In this document: positions 18,071 to 56,172 of the stretch, in pieces
Layout: each line of letters starts with the position of its first letter
Position numbering within the stretch: the stretch's first letter is position 1
Assembly: GCA_030038565.1 (NCBI GenBank)
Contig: JASHSS010000159.1
Location: 1 to 58,196 of the forward strand
Direction of reading: 5' to 3'
DNA: 58,196 bases
Source of the DNA: Bryobacteraceae bacterium
Lineage (GTDB): Bacteria; Acidobacteriota; Terriglobia; Bryobacterales; Bryobacteraceae
Made by a program: the position numbers and the translations under genes
Notes under the pieces: generated by a model
Told to the model about the DNA's origin: nothing
The model's input: only the letters and a program-made list of their open reading frames with translations
The model's database searches: none

Positions 18071-18145
18071 CGCTTCTGTTTCGGTTGTAGCATCGGAAGA
18101 GGAGCTTTTCTCCTGAAGACTTGCTGATATCTTGAGCCGCCGGAA

Positions 18146-18173
18146 TGTCAGGAAAATATCAGGATCGTGTCAG
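18146..18173. promoter_or_regulatory. three direct repeats T(G/A)TCAGGA phased at 11 bp; candidate OmpR-family response-regulator box
   Basis: TGTCAGGA at 18146, TATCAGGA at 18157 and TGTCAG at 18168, so the period is exactly 11 bp. The site is in the 139-bp divergent region between the DUF190-RND operon and the response-regulator gene. Confidence 0.4.
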
Positions 18174-18209
18174 TTGCAAAAACCCTTCGGCGCTCCTATA
18201 AATGAAATC

Positions 18210-18896
18210 GTGAACATCCTTGTGGTCGAGGACGAACGGAAAATGGCGCAGGCCCTGCAAGACGGCCTGGAAGCCGACGGCTACACGGTCCGCGTTGCCT
18301 ATACCGGCGAAGAGGGCTTTTACCTGATTCAAGCGCAAGCTTTCGATCTGGCGATTCTGGACGTTATGCTGCCCGGCCACGACGGGTTCGAGATTCTTGC
18401 TACGCTGCGGCGGCGCGGCGTGAGAACCCCGGTGCTGCTGCTCACTTCGCGCGATGCGGTGGAAGATCGTGTGCGCGGCCTCGATCTCGGCGCAGACGAT
18501 TACCTGGTAAAGCCGTTCGCTTTTCCCGAGTTGCTGGCGCGCATCCGCATGCTCTTGCGCAGAGGCCAGCCGGTTTCTTCCGCGCGCTTGAAACTGGCGG
18601 ACCTCGAAATGGACCTCGCGCAGCGTCTGGTGGTTCGGGCCGGCCAGAAGCTCGACCTGACCGCGCGCGAATTCGATCTGCTGGAATACTTCTTTTCGAA
18701 CAATGGGCGGGTGGTTTCGCGCGAAATGCTGGCGCGCGATGTATGGAAGGAGACCGCCCGGCAGACTCCGCTCGATAACGTCATCGATGCGCAAATGGTG
18801 CGTCTGCGCCGCAAGGTCGATGGGCAATCGGAGCACCGCCTGTTGCACACCGTGCGCGGCGTCGGCTTCGTCCTTCGAGAGGGCAACGAGACCTGA
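18210..18896 (+). CDS. OmpR-family response regulator, CusR/CopR-like
   Basis: GTG start giving VNILVVEDERKMAQAL. Receiver Asp in LAILDVMLPG, then LTSRDAVEDRVRGLDLGADDYLVKPFAFPELLARI and a winged-helix C-terminus. Confidence 0.9.
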   Translation: MNILVVEDERKMAQALQDGLEADGYTVRVAYTGEEGFYLIQAQAFDLAILDVMLPGHDGFEILATLRRRGVRTPVLLLTSRDAVEDRVRGLDLGADDYLVKPFAFPELLARIRMLLRRGQPVSSARLKLADLEMDLAQRLVVRAGQKLDLTAREFDLLEYFFSNNGRVVSREMLARDVWKETARQTPLDNVIDAQMVRLRRKVDGQSEHRLLHTVRGVGFVLREGNET

Positions 18897-20347
18897 TGCG
18901 GCTGCGGCCCACACATCTGCGCGCCCGCTTGACGTTCTGGTACGTCTCCGTACTGGCGGCTCTGCTGGCGCTCGGTTGGGCTGGAACCTGCACGCTCCTG
19001 TTTCTCCAACTGCGCAGCCAAGTCGATCGCTTCGCCATCGAGGAAATCGAAACCGTGGAGGGCCTGTTCTACTTCGATGCCGCAGGCGCACTGCAAATGC
19101 GCGAGAACTACCACAACCATCCCGAATCAAAGGAAGTGATCGACCGGTATGTGGAGGTGCTTTCGCCGGAGGGCGCGGTTTTGTTCCGCAATGAAAAGTT
19201 GGGGCGCCGCCCACTCGGCGGAGCGCCTTTCGCCGGCGAGGGTGTGGGCGGATATTCGCAGAGGACTGCGCGGCTCTCCGATGGAACGCGCCTGCGCCTG
19301 GTGAGCCGCGTGCATTCGCTCGATGGGCGAGCCTTGCTCATTCGGCTGGCCCACAGTGAAGAGCCGCTATACGCAGGACTGGACGAGTTATTACTGGCTT
19401 CGCTGCTCGTCTTGCCAGTCGTGTTGCTCACGGCGGGGGTTGCGGGCTACGTCCTGGCGTGGCGCGCGTTGAAACCGATCGAAAGGATGGCGCGGCACGC
19501 CGAGGAGATCACCGCCGAGCGGCTGGACGCGCGCCTGCCGGACGATGATACTGACGATGAACTCGGACAACTGGCGCGCGTCTTCAACGAAACCCTGGCG
19601 CGGCTGGAGCGGGCTTTCGAGCAGCTTCGGCGCTTTACATCGGACGCTTCGCATGAATTGCGGACGCCGCTGGCCATGATCCGCAGTGTCGGTGAGGTCG
19701 GCTTGCAAAAGGATGGCTCGCGCGAGGAGTATCGCGACATCATCGGGAGCATGCTGGAGGAGGTCAACCGGCTCAGTTCGCTGATCGACAACCTGTTGAC
19801 CATCTCGCGTGCGGATTCCGGCCACCTGCAGCTTCATAAGGCCGCAGTCCCGGTGATGGCTCTGGCGCGCGAGGCGGCGGGGCTTTTCGAGATTCTGATG
19901 GAGGAGAAATCGCAGCGGCTTACTCTGGACGGCGATGAGACGGCCCAGGCGGAAGGCGATCGCCTGTTCTTGCGGCAGGCTCTGGTCAATATCCTTCACA
20001 ATGCCGTGAAGTACTCGCCGGTTGGAGAGACCATCGCCCTGCATGTACGACGCGATGACGGCAGGGTGTTGGTGGAGATTCAGGATCACGGGCCGGGTAT
20101 ACCTGCCGAGGACCATCAAAAAGTCTTCGACCGGTTCTACCGCGTGGACAAAGCGCGCTGGCGCGAATCAGGCGGCGCGGGTCTGGGCCTCGCGATTGCC
20201 AAGTGGGCCGTCGAGGCGCACGGCGGCACGCTGACGCTGGAAAGCAAACTCGGCGAGGGATCGTCATTTCGGATCAGTTTACCGGGGGCTGGTCTTGATG
20301 GACCTTTTCCGCCCGCTGTTCCTGCCCATGCGTCCGGATTCACATAG
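18896..20347 (+). CDS. sensor histidine kinase, CusS/CopS-like (two TM, HAMP, HisKA, HATPase_c)
   Basis: The ATG overlaps the response-regulator stop. H-box FTSDASHELRTPLAMI, N-box NILHNAVKYSP, G-boxes DHGPGIP and GGAGLGLAIAK. Confidence 0.9.
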   Translation: MRLRPTHLRARLTFWYVSVLAALLALGWAGTCTLLFLQLRSQVDRFAIEEIETVEGLFYFDAAGALQMRENYHNHPESKEVIDRYVEVLSPEGAVLFRNEKLGRRPLGGAPFAGEGVGGYSQRTARLSDGTRLRLVSRVHSLDGRALLIRLAHSEEPLYAGLDELLLASLLVLPVVLLTAGVAGYVLAWRALKPIERMARHAEEITAERLDARLPDDDTDDELGQLARVFNETLARLERAFEQLRRFTSDASHELRTPLAMIRSVGEVGLQKDGSREEYRDIIGSMLEEVNRLSSLIDNLLTISRADSGHLQLHKAAVPVMALAREAAGLFEILMEEKSQRLTLDGDETAQAEGDRLFLRQALVNILHNAVKYSPVGETIALHVRRDDGRVLVEIQDHGPGIPAEDHQKVFDRFYRVDKARWRESGGAGLGLAIAKWAVEAHGGTLTLESKLGEGSSFRISLPGAGLDGPFPPAVPAHASGFT

Positions 20348-20395
20348 TTGAACGGCCGTCGGCGCCGATGCTGGGAGAGCGTTTCATTCCTCCGG

Positions 20396-21355
20396 ATGCC
20401 GCTGAAGAAACTGGCCGCGTTTCTTGGCGTCGGTCTTCTCGCGGGTTTCGAACGGGAATGGTCGCGCAAAGACCTGGGAGTGCGCACATTCGCTCTCACC
20501 GCGCTGCTCGGAACGCTGAGCGCGATGATTTCCGGGACGTTTGCGCTTGCCGCCCTGGCAGCGGTCGGCGTGGTGATATTGCTGGTCAACATCCGGACTT
20601 TACGGTTGCAGAGGACGCTGGAAATCACCACGTCGGTTTCGCTGCAATCCGGGCTAAGCAGCTTCGCCGGCGCCTTGCGTCCTGGGGAAATCCGGAGTGC
20701 GATCCTGCTGGGCCTGATCGTTTGTGATTTATCCGCTGATGCCTGATCGCTTCATAGACGCATGGAAACTGATCAATCCGCTGGGATCCTGGATTACCTT
20801 GGTCGCGATCGCTGCGATCGGGTTCGCAAATTGTGTGCTGCTGCGGTTGTATGGTGGCGGCGGCCTTCTTTTTACAGCAGTCCTCGGTGGATTGGTCAAC
20901 AGCAGCGCAACAGTAGCCGCCGGGATTGCGGTTCTTCCAATCGCGGTAATGAGTGGCGGCGCCTTCGCACTGGGGTGGTTCAGCCACTCATCGGCGGAAT
21001 TGAACCACGATCTGAAGCTCTCCTCGCCGGTCTCGATCCGCAAAGTGTTGTCCTTTGGAGAATTGTTACTGGCGATCAAAGTGGCGGGCGCCCTTCTATT
21101 GGGGGACTTGTGAGCAGCGCGAGCACCACTGCCGCGGCGGCATTGCTGGCGGCTCATGGCGAAACGTCGGCATACATCGCCGGTTTGGCGACGATCGTCA
21201 CCTCGGCCGCGAGCGCTGCCTCGAATCTTCCCGTGATCAATCGGGTGACCGGAAGCTTGCCGCTTATAAGGCGGTTGATGCTCTCGACAGCCGTCATCGT
21301 CGTGGCCGGACCAGGGATTACTGCAAGCGAAATCCTGCTCGACAACTTTCACTGA
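20396..21355 (+). pseudogene. decayed MgtC/SapB + DUF4010 family membrane protein
   Basis: The family sequence is split over three frames. Frame 1 carries GLLAGFEREWSRKDLGVRTFALTALLG. Near 20715-20725 it shifts to FVIYPLMPDRFIDAWKLINP...GGLVNSSATVAAG. Near 21105-21115 it shifts again to VSSASTTAAAALLA...NLPVINRV. The total length is shorter than I expect for the family. Confidence 0.6.
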
Positions 21356-21404: not shown

Positions 21405-22919
21405 ATGAAACGTATTCTTGTTCTTGTTTTGCTGTGTTTGCTGGTAAGCTCCGCCGCACCCAGAAGGCCAAAGCTTGTGGTGGCGGTGATCTTCGATCAA
21501 TTCCGATACGATTATCTGACGCGTTTCCGCACTGAATACCATGCCGGATTCGACCGCTTGTGGACGCAGGGGGCCGTGTTCAGCAATGCGCGGTATGAGC
21601 ACTATCCGACTGTGACTGCGGTGGGGCATAGCACGTATCTCACCGGTGCGACACCTGCCATCAGCGGCATTGTCGGGAACTCCTGGTACGACCGCACCGA
21701 GGGAAAGTCAGTCACAAGTGTGGTCGATAGCGGTACGAAGCTGGTGGGAAGCGACGGGGAGGGTTCGTCCCCGCGGAGATTGCTCGTGGACACGGTGGGT
21801 GATGAGTTGCGCAAAGCTAGCGGCGGGAAGTCGCACGTGATCGGAATCTCGCACAAGGACCGGGCCGCCATTTTGCCGGCCGGGCACTCCGCTGACGCTG
21901 CCTATTGGTTCCTCGATTCCACCGGCGGATTCGTCACCAGCGACTATTACCTGAGCCAACTGCCTGCCTGGGTGCGCGATTTCAACGCGTCCCATCCATG
22001 CCAGGCTTACGCCGGGGAGAAATGGCTCGGCCATACGCTTCCAGCATCCGGCGGAAAACTATGCGAAGCGGTAACCGCCAGTCCGTTCGGCAACGACTTG
22101 ATGGAACACTTCGCCGAGCGTGCCATCGAAGCGGAACAACTCGGCAGACATGACGCCACCGACCTGATGGCCCTCAGCTTCTCTTCCAACGATGTGGTGG
22201 GTCACCAATACGGGCCCGATTCGCACGAGGTGCACGAAATGTGCGTGACCTCCGACCGTGTACTTGGAAGGCTGATCGCCGCGCTCGATCGACAGGTCGG
22301 ATCGGACGGCTATGTTCTCGTGGTCAGCGCCGATCATGGAGTAGCGCCGACCCCGGAAGCCAACGCCACCCTCAAGATGCCTGGCGGACGGTTGACCGGA
22401 CACCCAATAGAAAAGGCTGTCGAAGCCGCTCTCGGCAAGCGGTATGGCGATGCCAAGTGGGTGACGAACGCCGGCGAAACGGGTTTGTACCTGAACCTGG
22501 AAGAGATCGAATCGAAGAAACTCGACCGCGCCGAAGTAGACCGTGTGGCCGCGAACGCTGCCATGACGCTGCCCCAAGTATTTCGCGTCTATACTCGCGA
22601 GCAGTTGCTCAACGGTCAGTTCCAGGACGATTCCATAGGGCGGCGGGTGCTGAACGGCTTCTTCGCTCAGCGTAGTCCGGATATAGAAGTGGTGCTGGAT
22701 CCTTATTGGATCACCGGTTCCTCAGGCGCTTCGCACAGTACGCCCTTCGGCTATGACACTCACGTGCCGGTCGCATTTCTAGGGGCCACGATCCGTCCCG
22801 GGCGTTACGACGAGCCTGTTACGATCAACGACGTAGCTCCGACACTGGCAACACTGCTGGCGATCGAGACGCCCGCAGGGTCCGTGGGACGAGCGCTTTC
22901 AGAGATCTTCGCGCAATAG
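21405..22919 (+). CDS. secreted alkaline phosphatase family protein (PafA-like, AP/NPP superfamily)
   Basis: Signal peptide MKRILVLVLLCLLVSSA. Motifs VVAVIFDQFRYDYLTRF, YPTVTAVGHSTYLTGA and VVSADHG. Confidence 0.85.
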   Translation: MKRILVLVLLCLLVSSAAPRRPKLVVAVIFDQFRYDYLTRFRTEYHAGFDRLWTQGAVFSNARYEHYPTVTAVGHSTYLTGATPAISGIVGNSWYDRTEGKSVTSVVDSGTKLVGSDGEGSSPRRLLVDTVGDELRKASGGKSHVIGISHKDRAAILPAGHSADAAYWFLDSTGGFVTSDYYLSQLPAWVRDFNASHPCQAYAGEKWLGHTLPASGGKLCEAVTASPFGNDLMEHFAERAIEAEQLGRHDATDLMALSFSSNDVVGHQYGPDSHEVHEMCVTSDRVLGRLIAALDRQVGSDGYVLVVSADHGVAPTPEANATLKMPGGRLTGHPIEKAVEAALGKRYGDAKWVTNAGETGLYLNLEEIESKKLDRAEVDRVAANAAMTLPQVFRVYTREQLLNGQFQDDSIGRRVLNGFFAQRSPDIEVVLDPYWITGSSGASHSTPFGYDTHVPVAFLGATIRPGRYDEPVTINDVAPTLATLLAIETPAGSVGRALSEIFAQ

Positions 22920-23127
22920 GTGCCCGCCTTGCCGTCTTCCAAAGGAGCAGTTTAGGGTAGCGGTTTGCTGACGCGCTCTAGAGGCGCGGTTTGCACTTTC
23001 GCGGATCAGCCTACGGGCCCATCTCCTCCGTAACTTCACCGCGGTCTCTCGACCGAGAACGTCGCTGACTCGTGGTGAGGCGCTATTGCATCTGAGCGCC
23101 AGATATTAAGGTCACTCCGCGGGATTC

Positions 23128-23362
23128 CGGTTCGCCTAGACGAATCAACTTGACATCCTCCGGTGCGAAGCCGAGCTTCCCTTATTGCATCTTCACGTGG
23201 TCATCCGCACCCCAGTATGCCTTCATGATCCTACCTTTGGGAGTGTCGGACTATGGCTGCCAAAACATGCGTGATCCCGTGCGCCAAGGTGTAGCCCAGC
23301 AGACAGCCTCCGATGTAAGGCTCAGTTTGGTTCACTCGATCGAGGAAGACCACCACATGTAT
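23128..23362 (-). pseudogene. remnant of a small HExxH-type metallopeptidase-like gene
   Basis: The minus strand reads VVFLDRVNQTEPYIGGCLLGYTLAHGITHVLAAIVRHSQ, where HExxH is degraded to HGITH. After a +1 shift it reads RIMKAYWGADDHVKMQ-TAA-GKLGFAPEDVKLIRLG. There is no start codon and the remnant abuts the acyltransferase fragment. Confidence 0.35.
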
Positions 23363-23365
23363 TGA

Positions 23366-23551
23366 TAGGCGCCGCTGATGGTGACGCCGCCGAACAGCGT
23401 GGCGCATTCCGGGCGCGCGCCGGCGTAGCGCCCGATGCTCTTCGACGGCAGCAGCAGCGGCGCGTACTGCTTCTGGTATTCCGGGCGGATGAACGAGCGC
23501 CCCAGTCCGAGCGCCGGTCCGATGCGGTCGAACAGGTCCGCGCGGAACCGG
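23366..23551 (-). pseudogene. 186-nt internal fragment copy of the OlsF-like acyltransferase gene
   Basis: It aligns to 25117..25302 without gaps, with 7 mismatches by hand count. It encodes RFRADLFDRIGPALGLGRSFIRPEYQKQYAPLLLPSKSIGRYAGARPECATLFGGVTISGAY. Homology stops abruptly on both sides. Confidence 0.8.
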
Positions 23552-23733
23552 GAATAGGGCGCCGCCGGCCTGGCCCCCGTCACATCGAGCGTATGGCCCC
23601 CAGATAACCACACCGGAAGCCGTCGGACAGGCGGCAACAAAGCGATCTGTGCGGCGGCGGTGAAATCGGCGATGCGAGCGGCGTCCTGGCCGAGAAGTTC
23701 GGCGGCGGCCAGCGTCCCCGCTCCGCGCCAACC

Positions 23734-24726
23734 CTACCGGTCGCGGCTGGCCGGGGCGGCCGCCCGCGTGGCCTCCGCCAGCCTGGCTTGCGCCTCGGCC
23801 CGTGTGGGCTGATTGCCCTCGGGTTCCTGGCTGCAGTACTCCGCCAGGTACCTCGCGGCGCGCGCCGCGTCGTGGCCGGCGGCGAGCAAGCGGTCCGCGG
23901 CGCGATAGTAGGGGGTCAGATCGTCGGGGACATGGCTCTGGGCGGCTTCCAGGAGCGCATCGAGTTCGCCCCAGGAACGGCGCGCGGCATACACCTCCGC
24001 CAGGATGGAGTAGCCCGCCACGCGGCCCGGGTCCAGGGCAATCGCATCGCGGCCCTGCTGCGCGGCCAGGTCCAGGTTCAGGTGTTGAGGCGCAAGCTCG
24101 TAAGCCGCCAGCGCTTCGCGCGCGCGGAAACTGGCCGGCCCCGCCTCGACGGCTTTTCTCAGCAAGTCCTCAATCCGGCTGCTCTCCTTGCGGTATTCCG
24201 CCAACCGGGCTTCCGCCAGCCAGCCTTCCGGGCGATCGATGGCGGCGATGCGCGCGGCGGTCGAGCGGGCCTTCTCCTGGTCGCCGCCGGCAATTCCCGG
24301 GGCTAGCAGGTAGAACTCCAGCTGGTCGCGGAGCGCCTGCACGTCGGCCGGATCGAGCGCCAGGGCGGTATCGATCTCGCGCTGGAACCGCCGCGCCAGC
24401 AGCAGTTGCCGGACCACATTGGCCTGCTGCGCCATCACTCCAATCACCTCGGCCATCTGGCGGTGGTACCTGGCTACCTGGGGCGCCAGTGCGACGGCCC
24501 TTTCGGCCAGCCTGGGCGGCGTTTGGCGGTCGCCGAAGGCATTGCGGATCTGCGACAGAAGAAAGTTCGCCAGCGGATCGTCGGGGGCCTCGCGGTAGCG
24601 CGCTTCCACGATCGCGCGGGCGCGCTTCCAGTGGCCTTTGGCGATCAGGTTCTCCGCAGGGGTCAGCGCCCAGGCGGCCGGCGGCGCCAGCACCCACAGC
24701 GCCAAAAGCGCGAGCCGCAGGGTCAC
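23734..24726 (-). CDS. secreted TPR-like repeat protein
   Basis: Signal peptide MTLRLALLALWVLAPPAAWA, then an Ala/Arg/Leu-rich helical-repeat sequence. The GTG start overlaps the stop of the upstream acyltransferase (GTGA). Confidence 0.7.
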   Translation of the reverse strand: MTLRLALLALWVLAPPAAWALTPAENLIAKGHWKRARAIVEARYREAPDDPLANFLLSQIRNAFGDRQTPPRLAERAVALAPQVARYHRQMAEVIGVMAQQANVVRQLLLARRFQREIDTALALDPADVQALRDQLEFYLLAPGIAGGDQEKARSTAARIAAIDRPEGWLAEARLAEYRKESSRIEDLLRKAVEAGPASFRAREALAAYELAPQHLNLDLAAQQGRDAIALDPGRVAGYSILAEVYAARRSWGELDALLEAAQSHVPDDLTPYYRAADRLLAAGHDAARAARYLAEYCSQEPEGNQPTRAEAQARLAEATRAAAPASRDR

Positions 24727-26528
24727 TTCCGGGCCGCGTGCCAGGCGGCGAAAGCGGCGGCCGCGGGCTTGCCCATGAAGCGTTCCAGGGTGGCCGCCGG
24801 AGCGGTACGCAGATCCACCATGATGAGCGCATCGAGGGCGTCGGAAAAGCCGCGGTCCACGTTGAACGCCAGAAGGCGTCCGCCGGTCTTGAGGTACTGC
24901 TTCACCAGGATCGGAATGCCCTTGCCATCGGATTCCATTTCGGCGATCAGGCCCGAGAGTTCGTCCAGGTCACCGGGTACGCGCGTCACCACCCCGGTGC
25001 GGCGGAATACGCGCCCGGCGGGGCGATAGGGGCGCCGCGGCGCGACCAGCGGCGCCAGTTCGCCGGCCCGGCGCTTCTCCAGAAATTGCACCATCAGGTG
25101 CTGTGACACCGGGTGGTAGGCGCCGCTGATGGTGACGCCGCCGAACAGCGTGGCGCATTCCGGGCGCGCGCCGGCGTAGCGCCCGATGCCCTTCCACAGC
25201 AGCAGCAGCGGCGCGTACTGCTTCTGGTATTCCGGGCGGATGAATGAACGCCCCAGTTCGAGCGCCGGTCCGATGCGGTCGAACAGGTCCGCGCGAAACC
25301 GGAAAAGCGTGCTGGTGTAGAGGCCGCGAATGCCATGGCGCGGCAGAATATCGGGGGTCGGCCCCAGCCGGTAGGCGCCCACCACCTCGCCAGCGGCGCG
25401 GTTCCACAGCACCAGGTGCTGGTAATAGCGGTCGAACCGGTCCAGGTCGATGGCACGGCCGGTGCCCTCGCCCACGCCGCGAAAGGCGATCTCGCGGAGG
25501 CGGCCGATTTCGCGCAACACCGCTGGGAATTCGCCGGCCGCGCCCAGAAAGACCGCCAGGTCGCCCGCTTCCGCGAGGATTCGGCCGGCAGGCAAGGCTG
25601 CGATGTCGCGCGCGACTTCGGCGGGCGGGGCGGGGGCGGCGATAGGAGCTTTGCGCGGGAACATCAGCAGGGGGTGAAAGCGGTTCGCCGCGGCGTGCCC
25701 GCCCGTTTCCAAAAGGTAGGTGCGGCAGCGCAGATACTCGATCGCCTGGCGGCCGCTCTCGAAGCATTCGAGCGTGGCGGGCGCCACCGGGCGGCCGATG
25801 CGGATTTCCACCCGGTGGCCTCGCTTGTTCAGCAGTTCGCGCGGCAGACTGGCCGTCCGCAGGCTGGGATGCACCGCCCCTGCCAGCTGAAATCCCATGC
25901 CGTTAGCCCCGGCGAAGAAGATGGGCACCGCCGCGGCTCCGGCGCGCTGCGCCACCCGCGCGATGGAAGGATGCCACGGCGGATCGGCCACCGCGCCGGT
26001 TCTGAAATCCACGTGGGCCACTTCGCCGGCCGGAAACGTGGCCAGCAGGCCGCCCGCAGCCATCCACGCGCGGCACTCGCGGAGCGCCGCGGCATTTCCC
26101 CCAATGGTGCCCTTGCGGCCGAACGGATCGATGAAAATACAGCGCTCCGCCAACTCCGGAATGCCTGCCAGCAGGGAGTTCGCCAGAATCCGGACATCCG
26201 GCCGGATCTTCGGCAACACCACCGCCAGGATGGCGCCCTCCAATAATCCAAACGGATGATTGGCCACGGCCAGCACCCCGCCGGTGCGCGGGATGTGCTG
26301 GATTTCCGCGCTGTCCAGTCGCCAGGTGATGCCCAACAACGCCAGCAGCCTCTCCAGGGTTTCCGCCGGATGGCCGGCTGCGCGCGCGCACCGGTAAGCC
26401 TCCCACAACCGGTCGAACCAGAAAAGCTTCTGGATCGCCGGCTCCATGGGGTTCAGAATGCTTCGCAAAGGCTCACCGAGGAGCCGCGAAACCGAAAGCG
26501 CGGCGGGCCTTTCTAATTCAGCTTGCAT
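24723..26528 (-). CDS. bifunctional acyltransferase: N-terminal PlsC-like O-acyltransferase + C-terminal OlsB/GNAT-like N-acyltransferase (OlsF-like aminolipid synthase candidate)
   Basis: 601 aa. The N-terminal half has GGVLAVANHPFGLLEG (acyltransferase His box) and LATFPAGEV. The C-terminal half has REIAFRGVGEGTGRAIDLDRFDRYYQHLVLWN...GAYRLG...LELGRSFIRPEYQ, typical of COG3176/OlsB-type GNAT acyltransferases. Confidence 0.75.
   Translation of the reverse strand: MQAELERPAALSVSRLLGEPLRSILNPMEPAIQKLFWFDRLWEAYRCARAAGHPAETLERLLALLGITWRLDSAEIQHIPRTGGVLAVANHPFGLLEGAILAVVLPKIRPDVRILANSLLAGIPELAERCIFIDPFGRKGTIGGNAAALRECRAWMAAGGLLATFPAGEVAHVDFRTGAVADPPWHPSIARVAQRAGAAAVPIFFAGANGMGFQLAGAVHPSLRTASLPRELLNKRGHRVEIRIGRPVAPATLECFESGRQAIEYLRCRTYLLETGGHAAANRFHPLLMFPRKAPIAAPAPPAEVARDIAALPAGRILAEAGDLAVFLGAAGEFPAVLREIGRLREIAFRGVGEGTGRAIDLDRFDRYYQHLVLWNRAAGEVVGAYRLGPTPDILPRHGIRGLYTSTLFRFRADLFDRIGPALELGRSFIRPEYQKQYAPLLLLWKGIGRYAGARPECATLFGGVTISGAYHPVSQHLMVQFLEKRRAGELAPLVAPRRPYRPAGRVFRRTGVVTRVPGDLDELSGLIAEMESDGKGIPILVKQYLKTGGRLLAFNVDRGFSDALDALIMVDLRTAPAATLERFMGKPAAAAFAAWHAARK
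25117..25302 (-). repeat. source copy of the duplicated 186-nt segment (inside the OlsF-like CDS)
   Basis: See 23366..23551. Confidence 0.8.
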
Positions 26529-26971
26529 GACATCGGGCGTCTCGATTCAGCCTCGCGCCGTGGGCGTTTCAGGGCGATGAAAAGAGTATGAATTTTGCGG
26601 CGGCATCCCGGGCGAAGCATGCGGGGGCGGGCCAGCGGCCCGGTAGCGTGACGGATCGTGAATCCACGGTCACACCGGCGAGACTGCGCCTCCAGGACCA
26701 CCGGTGAGCGCCTCGCGGAGGCGCGCGTCGACGATATGCAATTTAGGCGGCAGTTTCCGACGCGGCCTCCGGCAAACTGGATTGCGCAGCCGGCTTCCAC
26801 GTCCGTGGTGTCCATTCGGGCATGCGTCTCCCCCGTGTGTTGCGCGATCGGTATAACGGGGGTCCAGCCGTTCACGGCTGCGCTAAGCTGAAACCGGGTA
26901 CCGAAATCTGATTACCGGTTCGCGGGATTCCCGGGCTGCTCTCTCGTTCCGGAAACCGAATCTTATCGGAT

Positions 26972-26989
26972 CTGTAACCGAACTGCGTT
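26972..26989 (+). promoter_or_regulatory. Pho-box-like direct repeat CTGTAAC-CGAA-CTGCGTT
   Basis: It has the 7+4+7 layout of the E. coli Pho box (CTGTCAT-AAAA-CTGTCAC) and lies 29-46 nt upstream of the NPP-family gene start. It is embedded in several (T/A)A(A/C)CCGA repeats between 26892 and 27019. Confidence 0.25.
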
Positions 26990-27017
26990 CCCGCCGGTGG
27001 TATCACAAGGGTAACCG

Positions 27018-28004
27018 ATGGGAAGAATCGCAACCCTGTTTCTCTATTCCGCGATGGCCGCGAACGCCCAACACGTGATCGTCTTCGGGATCGACGGGCT
27101 GAGCGTCGACGGGGTCAACCGCGCCCACGCGCCACGTCTACACCAAATGATGCAGGATTCCGCATGGACCTTGGAAGCCCGCGGCGTCATGCCCACGCTG
27201 AGCAGTCCCAACTGGTCGTCCATGATCGACGGCGCCGGTCCGGAGCAGCACGGCATCACCTCCAACGGCTACCTCAAGCCCATGGCCGAACTGGAACCGG
27301 TCTGCCGCGACGAGGCGGGCATTTTTCCCACCGTTTTCGAGGTTCTGCGCCACGAACGCCCGGCCGCCGATATCGCCATCTTCCACGATTGGCCGGGTTT
27401 CGCCAACCTGGTCGAGAAATCGGCTCCGGATGTGCTCCGGCATGAGCACGGCGCCCCCAGAACCGTCGAGGCCGCCCTACGCTACTGGCGCGAGAAACAC
27501 CCCGAACTGATGTTCCTGCAACTCGACAACGTGGACCATGCCGGGCACGCCTCGGGCTGGTCCAGCCGGGAGTACCTGCGGGAGGTGGAGAACGACGACG
27601 CACTGCTGGGCCAGGTGCTCGATATGCTCCAGGAAACCCCTGTGGGCGAATCCACCTTTCTGCTGGTCACCTCCGACCATGGCGGCAAAGGGCGCAATCA
27701 CGGCAAGAATTCGCTCGAGGAAATCCTGATTCCGTGGATTCTGCACGGCCCCGACGTGGCCGCCGGACGTCTCGTGGCGGCGGTTTACACCTTCGACACG
27801 GCCGCCACCATTGCCTGGATTCTGGGTGTCGCGCCGCACCAGTGCTGGATCGGTCGTCCGGTGATGGCCGCCTTTCAGCCGGCCGGCATCACCGCTCGCA
27901 GCGGGTCCGGGCAGGGATCGTGCGCCGGGACCGTCATCGCCACCCCCGCCGCCGGAGCGTTTGGCGCGCCGCTGGCGGCTCATTCGGGAGACCGTCGGAA
28001 TTGA
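27018..28004 (+). CDS. secreted nucleotide pyrophosphatase/phosphodiesterase (NPP)-alkaline phosphatase superfamily enzyme
   Basis: Signal-like N-terminus MGRIATLFLYSAMAANAQ. Metal and nucleophile motifs VFGIDGLS, MPTLSSPNWSSMIDGAGPEQHGI, LQLDNVDHAGHASG and LVTSDHGG. Confidence 0.85.
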   Translation: MGRIATLFLYSAMAANAQHVIVFGIDGLSVDGVNRAHAPRLHQMMQDSAWTLEARGVMPTLSSPNWSSMIDGAGPEQHGITSNGYLKPMAELEPVCRDEAGIFPTVFEVLRHERPAADIAIFHDWPGFANLVEKSAPDVLRHEHGAPRTVEAALRYWREKHPELMFLQLDNVDHAGHASGWSSREYLREVENDDALLGQVLDMLQETPVGESTFLLVTSDHGGKGRNHGKNSLEEILIPWILHGPDVAAGRLVAAVYTFDTAATIAWILGVAPHQCWIGRPVMAAFQPAGITARSGSGQGSCAGTVIATPAAGAFGAPLAAHSGDRRN

Positions 28005-29209
28005 AGCCGATCCTGGACTTCATCTACATCGATTCCGGCGGAGGCCACCGCGCCGCGGCCACGGCCCTGATGGAAGTGATTCGCCGCCAGCAGCGGCCCT
28101 GGGAACTGCGCATGCTCTCGATCCAGGACCTGCTGAATTCGATCGACGTGATCCGCAAGTCCACCGGGATCCAGTTTCAGGAAATCTACAACATCATGCT
28201 GCGCCGCGGCTGGACTCTCGGCACGGAGCAGATCATCCCCGTGATGCACGCCATGATCCGGCTGTTTCACCGCGACGAGGTCCGCGTGCTCACCAGCCAC
28301 TGGAGCGCCTCTCCGCCCGATATGGTGGTGTCGCTGATACCGCACTACAACCGAGCCATTCGCCAGGCTCTGGACCGGATCGCGATGGGCCGCGGGGGCG
28401 CGCCGCCGCTGGTGACCATCCTGACCGATATCGCCGATCATCCGCCGCACTTCTGGATCGAGCCGCAGGACCAGTACGTAGTCTGCGGATCGGCGCGCGC
28501 CGCCGGGCAGGCGCGGGACATCGGATTGCCTCCCTCGCGCATCCTGCGCGTCTCCGGAATGATCCTCAACCCGCGGTTCTACGAGCCGCTGCCGGTGGAC
28601 CGCGCCGCAGAACGCATCCGCCTGGGTCTCCGCCCCGATTTGCCCACCGGCCTGGTGCTGTTCGGCGGCCAAGGCTCCATGGAAATGGTGAAGATCGCCC
28701 GCGCGATCGATCGCTCGCCGGTCGAAACGCAGTTGATCCTGCTCTGCGGCCGTCACCCGGAAGTCGCCCGCGAATTGCGCGCCATGCCGCACCGCATTCC
28801 CCTGTTCGTCGAAGGCTTCACGCGCGAAATTCCCTACTACATGTCGTTGGCCGATTACTTCATCGGCAAACCCGGCCCCGGCTGCCTGAGCGAAGCCCTG
28901 GCCATGCACCTGCCGGCCATCGTCGAGCGCAACGCCTGGACTCTGGCGCACGAGCGCTACAACGCGGACTGGCTTCTGGAGCAGGGCGCCGGCCTGGTCA
29001 TCGGCAGCTTCTCGGGGATCGCCGGCGCGGTGCGCCAGCTCCTTTCGCCCGACGAATACCCGCGCTACCGGCAGGCCGCCGCCGCCACCCGCAATGACGC
29101 CGTTTTCGAAATCCCCGCATTGCTCGACGGCATCCTGCGCCAGCCGCCGGTTGGCGTAACCGCGGCCCAACAAAACCTGCCCAACCGCACCCGCCTGCAC
29201 TTACAATAA
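28001..29209 (+). CDS. MGDG-synthase-like / GT28-family diacylglycerol glycosyltransferase
   Basis: ILDFIYIDSGGGHRAAATAL, typical of the MGDG synthase/UgtP N-terminus, and a C-terminal ADYFIGKPGPGCLSEALAMHLPAI GT-B motif. The only in-frame start near the conserved N-terminus is TTG at 28001, which overlaps the upstream stop (TTGA) and is preceded by GGGAGA. Confidence 0.75.
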   Translation: MKPILDFIYIDSGGGHRAAATALMEVIRRQQRPWELRMLSIQDLLNSIDVIRKSTGIQFQEIYNIMLRRGWTLGTEQIIPVMHAMIRLFHRDEVRVLTSHWSASPPDMVVSLIPHYNRAIRQALDRIAMGRGGAPPLVTILTDIADHPPHFWIEPQDQYVVCGSARAAGQARDIGLPPSRILRVSGMILNPRFYEPLPVDRAAERIRLGLRPDLPTGLVLFGGQGSMEMVKIARAIDRSPVETQLILLCGRHPEVARELRAMPHRIPLFVEGFTREIPYYMSLADYFIGKPGPGCLSEALAMHLPAIVERNAWTLAHERYNADWLLEQGAGLVIGSFSGIAGAVRQLLSPDEYPRYRQAAAATRNDAVFEIPALLDGILRQPPVGVTAAQQNLPNRTRLHLQ

Positions 29210-29215
29210 GTAGCG

Positions 29216-30199
29216 GTGAACATCGCTATCATCGGCTTCGGCTTCATGGGCGCCACGCATCTGGAGGCGCTCCGCGCGGCGCCCGGCGCGCGCCTGGCGG
29301 GCGTGGTCACCCGCAATGCTGCGCGCGATGCCCCCAAACTGCCCGCGGGCGTTGGCTGCCTGACGCTCGAAGCGGCCCTGGCGGATGCCTCCATTGACGC
29401 CGTGGATATCTGCCTGCCCACGCATCTGCACGCCCGCGTGGCGATCGATGCGCTGCGCGCCGGTAAGCACGTGCTGGTGGAAAAGCCCATGGCGCTGGAT
29501 CTCGCGAGCGCCGAAGCCATGGCCGCGGAAGCCGAGCGCCAGGGCCGCATTCTCATGACCGCCCAGGTGCTGCGCTTCTGGCCGGCGTATGTGGCGCTCC
29601 GCGAGACGCTCGTGGCTAACCAGTTCGGCCCCGTGCGCCACGCCCGTTTCGAGCGTCGCGCGGCCGTGCCCGCCTGGGGGCCCTGGCTCAAAGATCCCGC
29701 GCTCAGCGGCGGAGGCGCCTTCGACCTGCTGATCCACGATGTGGATATGTGCCTGCATCTTTTCGGCCCGCCTTCGGGCGTGGCCGCTGTGGAACACGTG
29801 GATGCCATTGCCGGCTCCAGCCTGCTGGACGCGCAACTCTACTACCCCGGCATGGTGGCGCACATCTCCGGCGGCTGGCAGCATCCCGGGGCATTCCCTT
29901 TTCGCATGGAATACACCGTGACCTTCGAGCGGGCTACTGCCGAGTACAGCTCCATGGGGCGCCCCGCCACGCTTTACTGCGCCCACGAAACCCGCCCGCT
30001 CGAAACCGGTGCGGGCGACGCCGCGGCCGCCGCGTACGCCGGCGAAATCGCTTATTTCGCAGACTGCTGCCGGACGGGCCGCGCGCCCCGGCTTTGCCCC
30101 CCGCGCGAATCGGCCGCCGCGGTGGCCCTCACGCTGCTGCTCCTCGAGGCCAGCCATGAGAATGGAGAGAAAATCGATGCACCGTTTGGAACCGCTTGA
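29216..30199 (+). CDS. Gfo/Idh/MocA family NAD(P)-dependent oxidoreductase
   Basis: The GTG start gives VNIAIIGFGFMGATHLEAL, a Rossmann fold. EKPMAL motif. It begins 6 nt after the glycosyltransferase stop. Confidence 0.9.
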   Translation: MNIAIIGFGFMGATHLEALRAAPGARLAGVVTRNAARDAPKLPAGVGCLTLEAALADASIDAVDICLPTHLHARVAIDALRAGKHVLVEKPMALDLASAEAMAAEAERQGRILMTAQVLRFWPAYVALRETLVANQFGPVRHARFERRAAVPAWGPWLKDPALSGGGAFDLLIHDVDMCLHLFGPPSGVAAVEHVDAIAGSSLLDAQLYYPGMVAHISGGWQHPGAFPFRMEYTVTFERATAEYSSMGRPATLYCAHETRPLETGAGDAAAAAYAGEIAYFADCCRTGRAPRLCPPRESAAAVALTLLLLEASHENGEKIDAPFGTA

Positions 30200-31016
30200 A
30201 CCAGGAGTGATGTTCTGGGCCGAAAGAGATTCGCTTGAGGGAATTGCCGCCATGGGCGTGCGCTGCGGCCAGTTGGGCCTGCCCGGCGAGATGCCGCTGG
30301 CGCCTGCCGCGGCCGAAACCTGGCGCCAGGATCTGGATCGCGCCGGCTTCACCCTGGTGACCGTGTTCGCGGCCTACGCGGGCGAAAGCTACGCCGATAT
30401 CCCCACCGTCCAGCGCACCGTCGGTTTCATCCCGCCGGCGACCCGCGCTGAGCGCGAGCGCCGCACCCTGGAGGTGAGCGACTTCGCCGCGCGCCTGGGC
30501 GTCCCCTCGATTGCCTGCCACATCGGGTTCGTACCCGAAGACCGCGCCCACCCCGATTACGCCGCCGTGCGCGACGTGGTTCGCCGCGTGGCGGACCATG
30601 CCGCGTTCCACGGCCAGACCTTCGCCCTGGAAACCGGCCAGGAACCCGCCCGAATCCTGCTGCGCTTCATGGATGACGTGGGCCGCCCCAATCTGCGCAT
30701 CAATTTCGATCCCGCCAACATGATTCTCTACGGCACCGGCGACCCCATCGAGGCCCTGCGCACGCTCGCGCCGCGCGTGGCTTCGGTGCATTGCAAGGAT
30801 GGCGACTGGCCGCCTGCCGGCGCCGCCGGCGCGCTGGGATCCGAACGCCCACTGGGCCACGGCTCCGTAGGGATGGCGCGATTCGTCTCCACGCTCAAAG
30901 ACATCGGCTTCACCGGCCCGCTGAACGTGGAACGCGAAACCGAAGACCAGCCCGCGCGTTTGCACGATATCGCCGCCGCCATCGGGCTGCTGCGCGAACT
31001 GGTGGGGCGAAGCTGA
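30177..31016 (+). CDS. sugar phosphate isomerase/epimerase (xylose isomerase-like TIM barrel)
   Basis: The ATG at 30177 is preceded by GGAGAG and overlaps the end of the Gfo gene by 23 nt. ...ACHIGFVPED...FALETGQE...NFDPANMILYG is characteristic of AP_endonuc_2/IolE-like TIM barrels. Confidence 0.85.
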   Translation: MHRLEPLEPGVMFWAERDSLEGIAAMGVRCGQLGLPGEMPLAPAAAETWRQDLDRAGFTLVTVFAAYAGESYADIPTVQRTVGFIPPATRAERERRTLEVSDFAARLGVPSIACHIGFVPEDRAHPDYAAVRDVVRRVADHAAFHGQTFALETGQEPARILLRFMDDVGRPNLRINFDPANMILYGTGDPIEALRTLAPRVASVHCKDGDWPPAGAAGALGSERPLGHGSVGMARFVSTLKDIGFTGPLNVERETEDQPARLHDIAAAIGLLRELVGRS

Positions 31017-31145: not shown

Positions 31146-31718
31146 ATGCGATTCCCAAGAGCGTCCTGTGCGCTCGTCCTGCTTTCAACCGCGGCCCTGG
31201 TAGCCCAAACCGATCAACCGGTCTTCCATCCCGAAGTGCCCTACGTGCCCACTACCCCGGAAGGCGTGCACGCGATGTTGAAGCTTGCCGACGTGAAGAA
31301 AACCGACGTGGTTTACGACCTCGGCTGCGGCGATGGCCGGATCGTGGTCGCGGCCGCCAAAGACTTCGGCGCGCATGCCGTGGGCATCGACATCGATCCC
31401 CAGCGCATCAAGGAGGCCCGTGAGAACGCCCGCAAAGCCGGTGTGGAAAACCTGGTGCGCTTCGAGGAGAACGATCTCTTCAAAGCCGACCTTCACGACG
31501 CCACCGTGGTGACTCTCTTCCTGCTCACCAGCGTGAACTTAAAACTCCGCCCCAAGCTGCTCGCGGAATTGCGGCCCGGCGCGCGGGTGGTCTCCAATAC
31601 TTTCGAAATGGGCGATTGGAAGCCGGACAAGGAAATCACCGTGGGCAGCCAGGAGGATGGATCCTACTGGAGCCACCACCTGCTTCTGTGGGTCGTTCCC
31701 CCGCGGGATGCCAAGTGA
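31146..31718 (+). CDS. class I SAM-dependent methyltransferase with N-terminal signal/anchor sequence
   Basis: MRFPRASCALVLLSTAALVAQ, then motif I VVYDLGCGDGRIVV and post-I GIDID. Confidence 0.85.
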   Translation: MRFPRASCALVLLSTAALVAQTDQPVFHPEVPYVPTTPEGVHAMLKLADVKKTDVVYDLGCGDGRIVVAAAKDFGAHAVGIDIDPQRIKEARENARKAGVENLVRFEENDLFKADLHDATVVTLFLLTSVNLKLRPKLLAELRPGARVVSNTFEMGDWKPDKEITVGSQEDGSYWSHHLLLWVVPPRDAK

Positions 31719-54048: not shown

Positions 54049-56172
54049 ATGGCACATTTTCTCGCCAATTTGTTCTCGAGCGATTTCATCGCCCATCGGA
54101 TGTGCTACCGGAACGATGCCGGAGTTCTCTGGCTGAACGTTATTTCGGATTCGCTCACCGCTCTGGCCTATTACCTCATTCCGCTGCTGCTCTTTTACTT
54201 CATACGGCGGCGCAGGGATGTCGGGTTCCGGTGGATTTTCGCGGCCTTCGCTATTTTCATCCTGGCCTGCGGCACCACCCATGCGTTGGGCGCCCTCACC
54301 GTGTGGGTTCCGGTCTACCGGCTGGAAGGCGGGGTGAAAGCGATTACCGCGCTCGCCTCGCTGACCACATTTTTCCTGTTGGTCCGAATGATGCCGGAGA
54401 TCCTGGCTTTGCCCAGTCCCGCGCGGCTCGCGGCAGTGAACCGGCAACTCGCGGACGAGATTGAGGAGCGCCGCGCCGCCGAGACCGAAGTCCGCCGGAT
54501 GAACGAGGAACTCGAAGAGCGGGTCTTGCGGCGCACGGCGCAACTGACGGAAAGCGAAGGATCCTTCCGCCAACTCGCCGACGCTCTGCCCCAGATGGTA
54601 TGGATGGCCGGTTCGGACGGCCGAATAGAATACCTGAACCGCCAGTGGAGCGAGTACGCAGGAATCCTGCCCGGCGAAGCGGGTAGCCCCTCGTCGTGGA
54701 CCTCCATCGTACACACCGCGGACGCGCCCATGGCCGCGGAGCGCTGGCAGGCTTCGGTTGAAACGGGCGATCCCTTCGACGGCGAGTACCGGCTGCTGGG
54801 CAAAGACGGCGGCTACCGCTGGTTTCTGGGCCGCAGCCGGCCGGTGCTGGGCGAACACGGCAAGATTCTCCGCTGGTTCGGCACCTTCACGGATATCGAT
54901 GGCCAGAAGCGGGCGGCGGAAGAACTGAGCCATGCTCTGGAGGAATTGCGCATTGAAATGCGCCGCCGGCGTGACGTCGAGGATCAGTTGCTCCAGGCCC
55001 AGAAGATGGAAGCGATAGGCCGGCTGGCGGGCGGGGTGGCCCACGATTTCAATAACCTGCTGACGGTAATCCTGGGGTATAGCGAACTGCTGCGCGAGGA
55101 GAGCGCCGGGAACCCCACGGCGCTGGAGTTCGTCTCGGAGATCCGCAAATCCGCCGATCGCGCGTCATCCCTCACCAACCAGTTGCTGGCCTTCAGCCGC
55201 CGCCAGGTCTCCGTGCCCCGGGTGCTCGATCTGAACGAAGTGGTGTTGCAAATCGAGAAGATGCTCCACCGCATCATCGGCGAGGACGTCCAGCTAAACC
55301 TGCGGCTGGCCGATGGCTTGCCGTTCGTCAAGGTGGACCCCAGCCACATTGACCAGGTGATTATGAACCTGGCGGTGAATTCACGCGACGCCATGCCTCA
55401 GGGAGGCCGATTGACTCTGGAAACCGCGGCTGTGCGCTGGTCCAGCGAGTATGGGGATGGGCATCCCAACCTGCCGGCCGGCGATTACGTCATGCTGGCG
55501 GTGAGCGACAACGGCTGCGGCATGGATGCGGTGACGCGCGGGCGGCTGTTCGAGCCGTTTTTCACCACCAAGGAGAAAGGCAAGGGCACCGGCCTGGGCC
55601 TGTCGATCGTCTATGGCATAGTGAGGCAATCGGGCGGCGACATTCTGGTGTATAGCGAACCCGGCCAGGGCACGGTGTTCAAGATCTACCTGCCGGCCGC
55701 CGCCGGAGGGCCGGAGGGCGCCCCGGCCCCAACCGAGCCAGCCCGCCCCGAGACTGCGGGCGCGAACACCGCGGAAGGCCCAGCCGGCCCGCCACAGGCT
55801 GCCAAAACCATCCTGCTGGTGGAGGACGAAGTCCAGGTGCGCAGCCTGACCCGGACCATGCTGTCCAAGCTCGGCTACCAGGTGATCGACGCCGGTTCGG
55901 CGGCCGAGGCGCTGGAATTGCTCGACCGCACCAGCGAGCCGATCTCGCTGCTGCTGGTCGATATTGTGATGCCGGAGATGAGCGGCCCGCAACTGGCTCA
56001 GCGGGTGCTGGCCTTGCGCCCGGCAATTCCTGTGCTGTTCATGTCCGGCTACACCGACGGCATGGTGGAGCAGGGCCTGCTCGACTCCGGCACGCCGTTC
56101 ATCCAGAAGCCGTTTACGGCCGAAGGTTTGGCGCAGCGGGTGCGCGAGGCGCTGGCCGGCAGCGAGGGATAG
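54049..56172 (+). CDS. hybrid sensor histidine kinase/response regulator with ETR1-like (ethylene-binding-domain-like) membrane N-terminus, PAS, HisKA, HATPase_c and REC
   Basis: 3-TM N-terminus [50 protein letters not shown] ([27 protein letters not shown]). H-box [18 protein letters not shown] and [12 protein letters not shown] (ILLVEDE...[13 protein letters not shown]). Confidence 0.9.

Follow-up and report, generated by a model that had tools for sequence, protein, structure and literature searches.

A candidate two-operon regulon for phosphorus-free membrane lipids in Bryobacterales

Do the acyltransferase, phosphoesterase and glycosyltransferase genes that lie side by side in a Bryobacteraceae genome belong to one system for phosphorus-free membrane lipids, or are they mere neighbours? 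The question is raised by a stretch of 58,196 nucleotides (contig JASHSS010000159.1 of assembly GCA_030038565.1), called the window here, in which the initial annotation had placed a candidate locus for phosphate-stress lipid remodelling and phosphorus scavenging at 21405-31016. Comparison with related genomes upholds this locus in part only. Its conserved core is a set of two divergent operons, one with an OlsF-like acyltransferase gene and a TPR protein gene on the minus strand, the other with the genes of a phosphoesterase of the nucleotide pyrophosphatase/phosphodiesterase (NPP) type and of a GT28 glycosyltransferase on the plus strand (27018-29209). The favoured reading, to which a probability of about 45% is given, is that of a conserved Bryobacterales regulon for phosphorus-free membrane lipids in which both operons would be jointly controlled, with phosphate limitation as the likeliest trigger. 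A literature search for phosphate-dependent lipid remodelling or a phosphate-sparing lipid strategy in Acidobacteria found no paper.

Conserved linkage and a common promoter element

All genes of the initial annotation were present as open reading frames in the window, and its domain calls and start/stop overlaps were likewise recovered from the sequence. The core comprises the following features.

23734-24726, minus strand: TPR protein, predicted to be secreted; weak TPR hits and a signal-peptide-like N-terminus
24723-26528, minus strand: OlsF-like bifunctional acyltransferase of 601 amino acids; Acyltransf_2 and Acetyltransf_5 domains, OlsF model NF052615
26565-26595, minus strand: box-O, three phased half-sites, AAATTCATACTCTTTTCATCGCCCTGAAACG; 37-67 nucleotides upstream of the OlsF-like ATG, 35.9 bits with its weight matrix
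26957-26981, plus strand: box-G, CGAATCTTATCGGATCTGTAACCGA (YTTAY-N6-GTAAC); 37-61 nucleotides upstream of the NPP-like ATG, 27.8 bits with its weight matrix
27018-28004, plus strand: NPP-type phosphoesterase of the alkaline-phosphatase superfamily (APl), 328 residues; Phosphodiest domain, 101.6 bits
28001-29209, plus strand: GT28 glycosyltransferase resembling monogalactosyldiacylglycerol (MGDG) synthase, 402 amino acids, TTG start; Glyco_tran_28_C domain

Both operons are tightly packed. The start of the TPR gene is translationally coupled to the OlsF-like stop through a GTGA overlap at 24723-24726, and the NPP-like gene runs into the glycosyltransferase gene through a TTGA overlap at 28001-28004, both read directly from the sequence. 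The start giving 601 amino acids for the OlsF-like protein and the TTG start giving 402 for the glycosyltransferase fit the lengths and coverage of their homologues. The GC content of the window is 59-70%, and the names of homologues point to Bryobacteraceae, Acidobacteriota. An Rfam scan of the 489-nucleotide spacer between the divergent operons gave no credible riboswitch or other RNA, and scans for sigma-70 promoters and terminators gave matches at chance level.

Conservation was followed with the glycosyltransferase as a query against one genome per GTDB species. This led to 72 loci (designated by L numbers), of which 61 encode a protein at least 50% identical to the query, and the neighbours in these 61 were counted by tblastn and clustering of open reading frames. 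The NPP-like gene was found directly upstream of the glycosyltransferase gene in 28 of the 61 loci, one of the NPP-like copies (L007) being frameshifted. The TPR gene was present in 14, where it follows OlsF or immediately precedes the glycosyltransferase gene, and an OlsF-like gene divergent from the glycosyltransferase operon in eight, with partial N-terminal matches in three further loci (L020, L030, L070). A GH1 gene adjoins the glycosyltransferase gene in eight loci as well. Reciprocal look-ups added loci with OlsF followed by the TPR gene and no glycosyltransferase nearby (L076, L077), with OlsF divergent from an NPP-like/glycosyltransferase pair (L079, L080), with the NPP-like gene followed by the glycosyltransferase (L083, L086) and with the NPP-like gene alone (L084). 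The TPR gene, which also occurs in L076, L077 and L086, recurs together with OlsF in at least four arrangements among the related loci and is a conserved partner of the module. Genes outside the module vary from locus to locus, and because the flanks differ, the retained linkage is more than residual synteny. The claim that the OlsF-like, TPR, NPP-like and GT28 genes form a unit was thus borne out, since they recur together in several arrangements across Bryobacterales with a common promoter element. As to the quartet of NPP-like, glycosyltransferase, Gfo/Idh/MocA oxidoreductase (Gfo) and TIM-barrel genes, whose synteny had been proposed for checking, its first pair is conserved (28/61) and its second is confined to the closest relatives.

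The promoters of both operons contain versions of one element, TTCAY-N6-GTWAY(-N5-TGAAAC). Box-G, a 25-nucleotide consensus (CAAACTTTCATCGCATCGTAACG) found by aligning the promoters of NPP-like genes, has its sole strong match in the window at the site listed above. In nearly all Bryobacterales loci it stands in front of the leading gene of the glycosyltransferase operon, whether this is the NPP-like gene, a small open reading frame or the glycosyltransferase gene itself. Box-O occurs in the promoters of OlsF and TPR genes, from which its weight matrix was built, and consists of three half-sites (AAATTCAC-N6-GTTATC-N4-TGAAAC). In 1.5 Mb of fetched DNA, 47 matches of at least 20 bits were obtained with the box-G matrix and 27 of at least 28 bits with the box-O matrix, and block-shuffled DNA gave none with either. 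Each of these box-O matches has an OlsF or TPR operon downstream of it, also in loci outside the matrix set. Boxes were also found in other loci that did not serve to build the matrices (L002, L004, L015, L020, L083-L087), upstream of OlsF genes without a nearby glycosyltransferase (L076, L077) and upstream of an NPP-like gene without one (L084). Because the boxes occur at unlinked copies and at loci outside the matrices, the genes are a regulon and not mere neighbours.

The half-sites are similar to GTTCACC, a unit of the PHO boxes of actinobacteria. TTCAY and GTAAC are 11 bp apart, and each is one base off the Pho half-site GTCAY (consensus cited in PMC8528852). This architecture fits an activator of the OmpR/PhoB type without pointing to a particular one. 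Separately, about 11 loci have genes for large outer-membrane proteins, with CarboxypepD_reg and a beta-barrel, in the vicinity of the module, and box-like sites were observed upstream of two of them, at L035 ~18883-18916 (minus strand, CTGTCAC..TGAAAT..TGAAAT) and at L076 14385-14409 (minus strand, 21.8 bits). From these sites, the outer-membrane protein genes may be further members of the regulon.

Exchange of the phosphoesterase and predicted enzyme functions

In the known PlcP-Agt pair, a phosphoesterase gene precedes a glycosyltransferase gene, and the initial annotation had placed the NPP-type enzyme in the PlcP position. The related loci agree with this placement, as other lineages have different phosphoesterases beside the same glycosyltransferase family. 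A phosphoesterase lies within 5 kb of the glycosyltransferase in 48 of the 61 species loci, namely the NPP-like enzyme in 28, an orphan protein with PHP-like motifs in 13, PAP2 in five and a PlcP/LpxH-like enzyme in three, with two types together in a single locus (L046, NPP-like plus orphan). The PAP2 lipid phosphatase is encoded divergently from the glycosyltransferase in five Terriglobia-type loci, and the PlcP/LpxH-like metallophosphoesterase directly upstream of it in L054, L056 and L074; upstream in L055, a metallophosphoesterase-like coding sequence was recognized by eye only. The orphan family of 370 residues (L014, L017, L021, L027, L035, L038, L040, L044, L046, L047, L069, L071, L073) is always found near the glycosyltransferase and, except in L046, without the NPP-like gene, and its promoters share a TGTAACC core. 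It matched no Pfam family and, as a single sequence or as a 12-sequence profile, no sequence of the PDB. By inspection of its invariant residues only (H-x-H, D-H-D, E, H, H, D-x-H), it resembles PHP proteins.

Such a four-family exchange is the pattern expected if the partner of the glycosyltransferase carries out one step that is open to several folds. Characterised PAP2 and PlcP enzymes make diacylglycerol from phospholipid or phosphatidate. That both of these replacements yield diacylglycerol is the main argument for the view that the NPP-like enzyme would feed the glycosyltransferase.

The NPP-like protein bears a Phosphodiest domain (PF01663 in Pfam), and its best solved relative is the NPP of Xanthomonas (E 5e-15). 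In the alignment to this enzyme, the metal ligands D26, D173, H177, D220, H221 and H228 are retained and S62 is aligned with the nucleophilic threonine; the six ligands and S62 are invariant in 30 NPP-like homologues. The domain, the ligands of the bimetallo site and the Thr/Ser nucleophile that characterize an NPP are hence all found. The AlphaFold2 (AF2) model (pLDDT 77.6) has an NPP as its top fold match at a TM score of 0.65, followed after the NPPs by the periplasmic domain of YejM and by sulfatases. As to a full NPP core with the insertion that shapes the nucleotide pocket, the Xanthomonas enzyme is longer by about 60 residues, and segments 81-92 and 225-231 of the model are of low confidence. 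The signal-peptide-like N-terminus about which the initial annotation had cautioned was seen, the source of one homologue labels that homologue as exported, and conserved Cys residues occur in the NPP-like protein. Among the candidates scored with this query, 815 proteins reached E <= 0.001, and the source names in the 120 matches listed are, where given, of the Bryobacterales type. Within the NPP family, NPP6 and NPP7 are lipid phosphodiesterases. The enzyme is proposed to supply diacylglycerol as a phospholipase C does, or else to be a periplasmic phosphodiesterase. It was rejected as PlcP proper, given that it belongs to the Phosphodiest/alkaline-phosphatase superfamily instead of bearing the PF00149 domain of LpxH-like metallophosphoesterases.

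The glycosyltransferase carries the Glyco_tran_28_C domain (24.4 bits in Pfam, cut-off 22). It gave a full-length phmmer match to Arabidopsis MGD1 (residues 8-371, E 2e-22) and also matched the processive diacylglycerol glucosyltransferase 9wde. Its AF2 model (pLDDT 85) was matched by Foldseek to MGD1 with E 4e-20 and TM scores of 0.81-0.84, the next folds, MurG and CalG, being nine orders of magnitude weaker at about 1e-11. The GGGH motif (G13-G14-G15-H16) is invariant, and the GT-B fold, the GT28 C-terminal domain and the GGGH region of the MGDG synthase/UgtP class are all present. With the UgtP equivalog model PRK13609 the protein scored 69 bits against a cut-off of 500, i.e. below the equivalog level. 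It is predicted to be a diacylglycerol glycosyltransferase that makes glycosyl-diacylglycerol. Two further observations concern its surroundings. Group II intron reverse-transcriptase genes or remnants lie directly downstream of the glycosyltransferase gene in two different genomes (L001 12396-15224, L005 3190-4211). Cyanobacterial loci (L058-L068, L075) often hold two copies of glycosyltransferase homologues, in clusters with a polyketide synthase (PKS), a TubC-docking-domain protein, a short-chain dehydrogenase (SDR), a GMC oxidoreductase, a UDP-galactopyranose mutase and an MFS transporter; this gene content suggests a galactofuranose-bearing polyketide glycolipid.

In the OlsF-like protein, Acyltransf_2 (residues 73-275) is followed by Acetyltransf_5 (residues 344-445) according to Pfam. 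A PlsC-type O-acyltransferase at the N-terminus and an OlsB-like GNAT N-acyltransferase at the C-terminus are thus joined in one polypeptide, as in OlsF. The OlsF model NF052615 aligns with residues 53-585 over positions 50-569 of its 570, with 357.9 bits. Homologues at 59-81% identity have Bryobacteraceae-type names wherever the source gives one. The protein is predicted to synthesize a phosphorus-free acyloxyacyl aminolipid. Its TPR partner has weak TPR_14/TPR_17 matches in Pfam, and its N-terminus, MTLRLALLALWVLAPPAAWA, is signal-peptide-like as judged by eye. A direct repeat of 192 nucleotides with 95% identity (window 23363-23554 and 25114-25305) copies 63 residues of the OlsF-like GNAT domain (410-472) to a site between the PafA-like gene and the TPR gene. 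This repeat may be the relic of a gene fragment or may stem from faulty assembly; it was rejected as a second OlsB-like gene, the rest of the gene not being duplicated.

According to the proposed mechanism, the OlsF-like enzyme would N-acylate and then O-acylate an amino acid to form an aminolipid of the ornithine-lipid type. The exported NPP-type enzyme, with its bimetallo site, would strip the phospho-head group from glycerophospholipids at the periplasmic face in the manner of a phospholipase C. The freed diacylglycerol would flip across the membrane, where the GT28 enzyme of the MGD1/UgtP type would add a sugar from a UDP-sugar at the cytoplasmic face to give glycosyl-diacylglycerol, and the released phosphate ester would be open to scavenging. 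Both operons would be turned on together through one tandem-repeat operator of the OmpR/PhoB type, represented by box-O and box-G. A more specific version appears doubtful. It sees here a Pho-type renovation made from non-homologous parts, with a secreted NPP phospholipase C, an MGD1-like GT28, an OlsF-like enzyme obligatorily paired with a periplasmic TPR protein, an undescribed operator and an evolutionary replacement, beside the same glycosyltransferase, among phosphoesterases of four unrelated folds that include the orphan family.

The phosphate signal and competing explanations

Phosphate limitation is the most likely trigger of both operons, on evidence that is indirect throughout. In L074, the genes for an SDR, a PlcP-like protein, a glycosyltransferase, GH1, OlsB and OlsA follow one another, and the other strand encodes an NPP-type enzyme, PhoB, PhoU, PstB, PstA and PstC. 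The lineage of this locus is outside Acidobacteriota, its PlcP-like protein being 62-63% identical to proteins of Binataceae metagenome-assembled genomes. GTCAT-N6-GTAAC occurs in the promoter of its NPP-type gene, and no match to the E. coli Pho-box consensus was obtained in L074. In L002, a TPR gene followed by ppk1 stands behind a box-O of 30.3 bits. L039, L040, L041 and L045 each have a PhoU-domain gene no more than about 6 kb away from the glycosyltransferase; the one of L041 adjoins it, and the one of L040 is in an operon with a metallophosphoesterase, divergent from an orphan-protein gene. There are also precedents in the literature. PlcP-Agt operons with Pho boxes are described in Pseudomonas (PMC8528852), and in Desulfovibrio, mutants in olsF and in agt show growth defects when phosphate is limiting (PMC5193443). 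In passages of a review, the olsF of Serratia is preceded by a Pho box and that of Vibrio is PhoBR-dependent (PMC12971839).

The points that weigh against the favoured reading are given in this paragraph and with the alternatives that they support. The 357.9 bits of the OlsF-like protein fall below the equivalog cut-off of 620 of NF052615, which makes it a homologue and not an equivalog. In passages of the same review, Bryobacterales are listed with OlsF homologues, without functional evidence for OlsF activity or ornithine lipids (PMC12971839). Of the four PhoU-domain genes, only that of L040 has a box-like site, the other three being without a box. A search of the 75 fetched loci with an approximate E. 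coli PstS query found no pstS.

A first alternative accepts the module and the regulon and holds that the NPP-like enzyme is only co-regulated and works in the periplasm as a phosphodiesterase or phosphatase, recovering phosphate from external esters or from head groups set free, with diacylglycerol coming from another source. The signal peptide and the conserved Cys residues of the enzyme, together with the homologue named as exported, favour it. In the same direction point the lack of a lipid-specific signature in this enzyme and its nearest solved relatives, nucleotide pyrophosphatases/phosphodiesterases that hydrolyse nucleotides. Furthermore, the NPP-like gene is found alone behind box-G, without a glycosyltransferase, in L084/L085. 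On the contrary, the tight start/stop overlap with the glycosyltransferase gene and a pair kept in 28 species are not what this explanation would lead one to expect. Lipid-acting enzymes (PAP2, PlcP/LpxH-like) take the same position in other lineages, and the NPP-like family, small and with Bryobacterales-type names where given, is not a general scavenging family. This explanation is taken as rather unlikely.

A second alternative keeps the lipids and changes the signal. Acid, temperature or envelope stress would induce the operons, or they would be constitutive, and the regulator at the box would be a member of the OmpR family different from PhoB. Genes for pst, phoU or phoBR are absent from the window. 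Upstream, 18132-20347 encodes a two-component system of the heavy-metal CusRS type beside an RND efflux system; it was rejected as PhoBR on account of its best models, of the heavy-metal CztR/CztS type, and of the adjoining efflux genes. The E. coli Pho-box consensus had three matches in the window at three mismatches, where 2.4 are expected by chance, and the box itself deviates from CTGTCAT, the canonical repeat. Peat and bog samples are the origin of many related genomes, and low pH, heat and low salt are further inducers of ornithine lipids according to passages of the review cited above (PMC12971839). Nevertheless, partners from four phosphoesterase families are best understood if the purpose is to release phosphate or to break down phospholipid. 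The pst-phoU-phoB neighbourhood in L074, the ppk1 gene behind a box in L002 and the PhoU-domain neighbours speak for phosphate, and another signal is clearly unlikely.

A third alternative concerns the glycosyl acceptor. The glycosyltransferase would act on another lipid (a hopanoid, a long-chain alcohol or an aminolipid) or build a UgtP-like anchor of the lipoteichoic type, and the NPP-like enzyme would be a head-group transferase or hydrolase of that pathway. The cyanobacterial homologues, at 41-44% identity, lie in polyketide clusters with a UDP-galactopyranose mutase, and for this reason the acceptor of the glycosyltransferase family is not fixed. An open reading frame of 741 residues resembling squalene-hopene cyclase, judged by repeat motifs alone, follows the glycosyltransferase at a distance of about 2 kb in four loci (L030, L036, L066, L070), and the UgtP equivalog score is far under the cut-off. 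Opposed to this are the match to the diacylglycerol-using MGD1, best in sequence and fold by a wide margin and followed by 9wde, and the PlcP-like and PAP2 partners, whose families have characterised members that make diacylglycerol. Another acceptor seems improbable, and the joint regulon for phosphorus-free lipids remains the preferred reading.

Neighbouring genes and known systems

The initial annotation had extended the locus to three further genes of the 10-kb stretch.

21357/21405-22919, plus strand: PafA-like alkaline phosphatase, predicted to be secreted; Phosphodiest domain, PafA model NF042991
29216-30199, plus strand: Gfo/Idh/MocA oxidoreductase; Pfam and NCBIfam matches
30177-31016, plus strand: xylose-isomerase-like TIM barrel; AP_endonuc_2, E 4e-32

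With the PafA model NF042991, the PafA-like protein scored 480 bits in two stretches against a cut-off of 650, and it is thus PafA-like without being an equivalog. Its inclusion in the locus did not hold up, as no homologue was found in any related locus and no box lies upstream. PafA enzymes are reported to be insensitive to phosphate, so that the gene is no evidence for a Pho locus. It is an independent neighbour.

The Gfo gene starts 6 nucleotides after the glycosyltransferase gene (gap at 29210-29215, read from the sequence) and overlaps the TIM-barrel gene by 23 nucleotides, from the ATG at 30177 to the stop at 30199. The best NCBIfam model of the Gfo protein is iolG (105 bits, below the cut-off of 355), and its solved relatives are generic sugar dehydrogenases (sugar or inositol dehydrogenase-like). 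The best solved relative of the TIM barrel is 3tva, of unknown function (E 9e-70). Among the 61 loci, Gfo or TIM genes are near the glycosyltransferase only in L004 and L005, and they also occur in L003; Gfo was found next to it in all three and the TIM barrel in L003 and L005 only. The glycosyltransferases of these three loci are all at least 85% identical to that of the window, and in L005 a group II intron remnant separates Gfo/TIM from the glycosyltransferase. The modified glycolipid head group that the initial annotation had deduced from the two genes is, with such a distribution, left without comparative backing. They appear to be co-transcribed passengers or at most a clade-specific extension, a role in head-group modification or breakdown being possible but unsupported.

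The initial reading of the entire 10-kb stretch, PafA, Gfo and TIM included, as a single locus for phosphate stress whose glycolipid has a modified head group is hardly tenable, despite the tight packing of Gfo and TIM behind the glycosyltransferase in the window and in L003 and an unrelated AP_endonuc_2 gene near the module in L019, L083 and L086, since Gfo/TIM occur in only three close relatives, once behind an intron remnant, the PafA-like gene recurs in no related locus and has no box, and no function can be assigned to the TIM barrel.

Other neighbours are reported for completeness. The second AP_endonuc_2 TIM-barrel gene, upstream of the module in L019, L083 (2790-3614) and L086 (3106-3978), is accompanied by a 159-residue open reading frame and a Macro-domain gene; it was rejected as a relative of the TIM barrel of the window, to which it has no detectable sequence similarity. 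At 20348-21355 (plus strand), a gene for an MgtC plus DUF4010 membrane protein is split over at least three frames, through pseudogenization or assembly indels. Just downstream of the operon, 31146-31718 (plus strand) encodes a SAM-dependent methyltransferase with a signal-peptide-like N-terminus, for which an archaeal protein-lysine methyltransferase is the best model (162 bits, cut-off 200) and which is not conserved beside the module. Finally, a hybrid histidine kinase is encoded at 54049-56172 (plus strand), with the ETR1_N N-terminus of ethylene receptors (E 9e-36) followed by PAS, HisKA, HATPase and receiver domains.

Acidic and peat soils are rich in Acidobacteria, particularly in Bryobacterales. 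If the favoured reading is true, the renovation of phospholipids into glycolipids and aminolipids would extend to a major soil phylum, and an NPP-type enzyme, possibly with the orphan PHP-like-motif family, would join the enzymes able to start it. The operator would allow the phosphate regulon of uncultured Acidobacteria to be predicted, and the genes would provide markers for phosphorus stress in soil metagenomes and metatranscriptomes. In addition, the conserved periplasmic TPR partner would be a new lead on how phosphorus-free lipids are handled in the envelope.

Four known systems offer a comparison. In the OlsF proteins of Serratia proteamaculans, Flavobacterium johnsoniae and Vibrio cholerae (VC0489), the two domains stand in the same order, and the OlsF model matches the protein of the window end to end. 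The score is nonetheless 358 bits, against the 620 required of OlsF equivalogs. A Pho-type box upstream has a precedent in those systems according to passages of a review, in which a pairing with a secreted TPR gene, to which the OlsF-like gene is always coupled here, is not mentioned (PMC12971839).

The supply of diacylglycerol has parallels further away. In the phosphate-starvation route of plants, the non-specific phospholipases C NPC4/NPC5 work with the type-B MGDG synthases MGD2/MGD3. The likeness lies in an enzyme of the alkaline-phosphatase-superfamily fold that supplies diacylglycerol to a GT28 MGDG synthase, and the glycosyltransferase of the window is nearest to plant MGD1. The plant NPC enzymes, however, belong to the PF04185 branch and not to NPP, the plant genes are not in an operon, and the enzyme of the window is exported. 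In the LtaS/UgtP system of Firmicutes, an extracytoplasmic enzyme of the alkaline-phosphatase superfamily frees diacylglycerol from phosphatidylglycerol at the outer face and a cytoplasmic GT28 uses it. With this precedent, the proposed topology of an exported enzyme and a cytoplasmic GT28 would be workable. LtaS differs in having a multi-span membrane anchor and in polymerising glycerol phosphate, whereas the NPP-like enzyme has a signal peptide only, and no sign of teichoic acid genes was seen here.

In arrangement, the core parallels PlcP-Agt of Sinorhizobium, SAR11, Phaeobacter and Pseudomonas aeruginosa (PA3219-PA3218). There as here, one operon with a tandem-repeat operator in front holds the phosphoesterase gene and, immediately after it, the glycosyltransferase gene, and a glycosyl-diacylglycerol is predicted to replace phospholipid. 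The adjoining and co-oriented genes are seen in the TTGA overlap of the window and in the 28 loci with the same pair, and this GT28 family does have a PlcP/LpxH-like metallophosphoesterase as its partner in L054, L056 and L074. The parts themselves differ. PlcP is a metallophosphoesterase, whereas the enzyme of the window is an exported NPP-type member of the alkaline-phosphatase superfamily. Agt is a GT4 enzyme, and the glycosyltransferase here is an MGD1-like GT28. The operator is TTCAY-N6-GTAAC instead of CTGTCAT-N4-CTGTCAT. The system is best described as a variant of PlcP-Agt/OlsF lipid renovation with non-homologous parts and an operator of its own.

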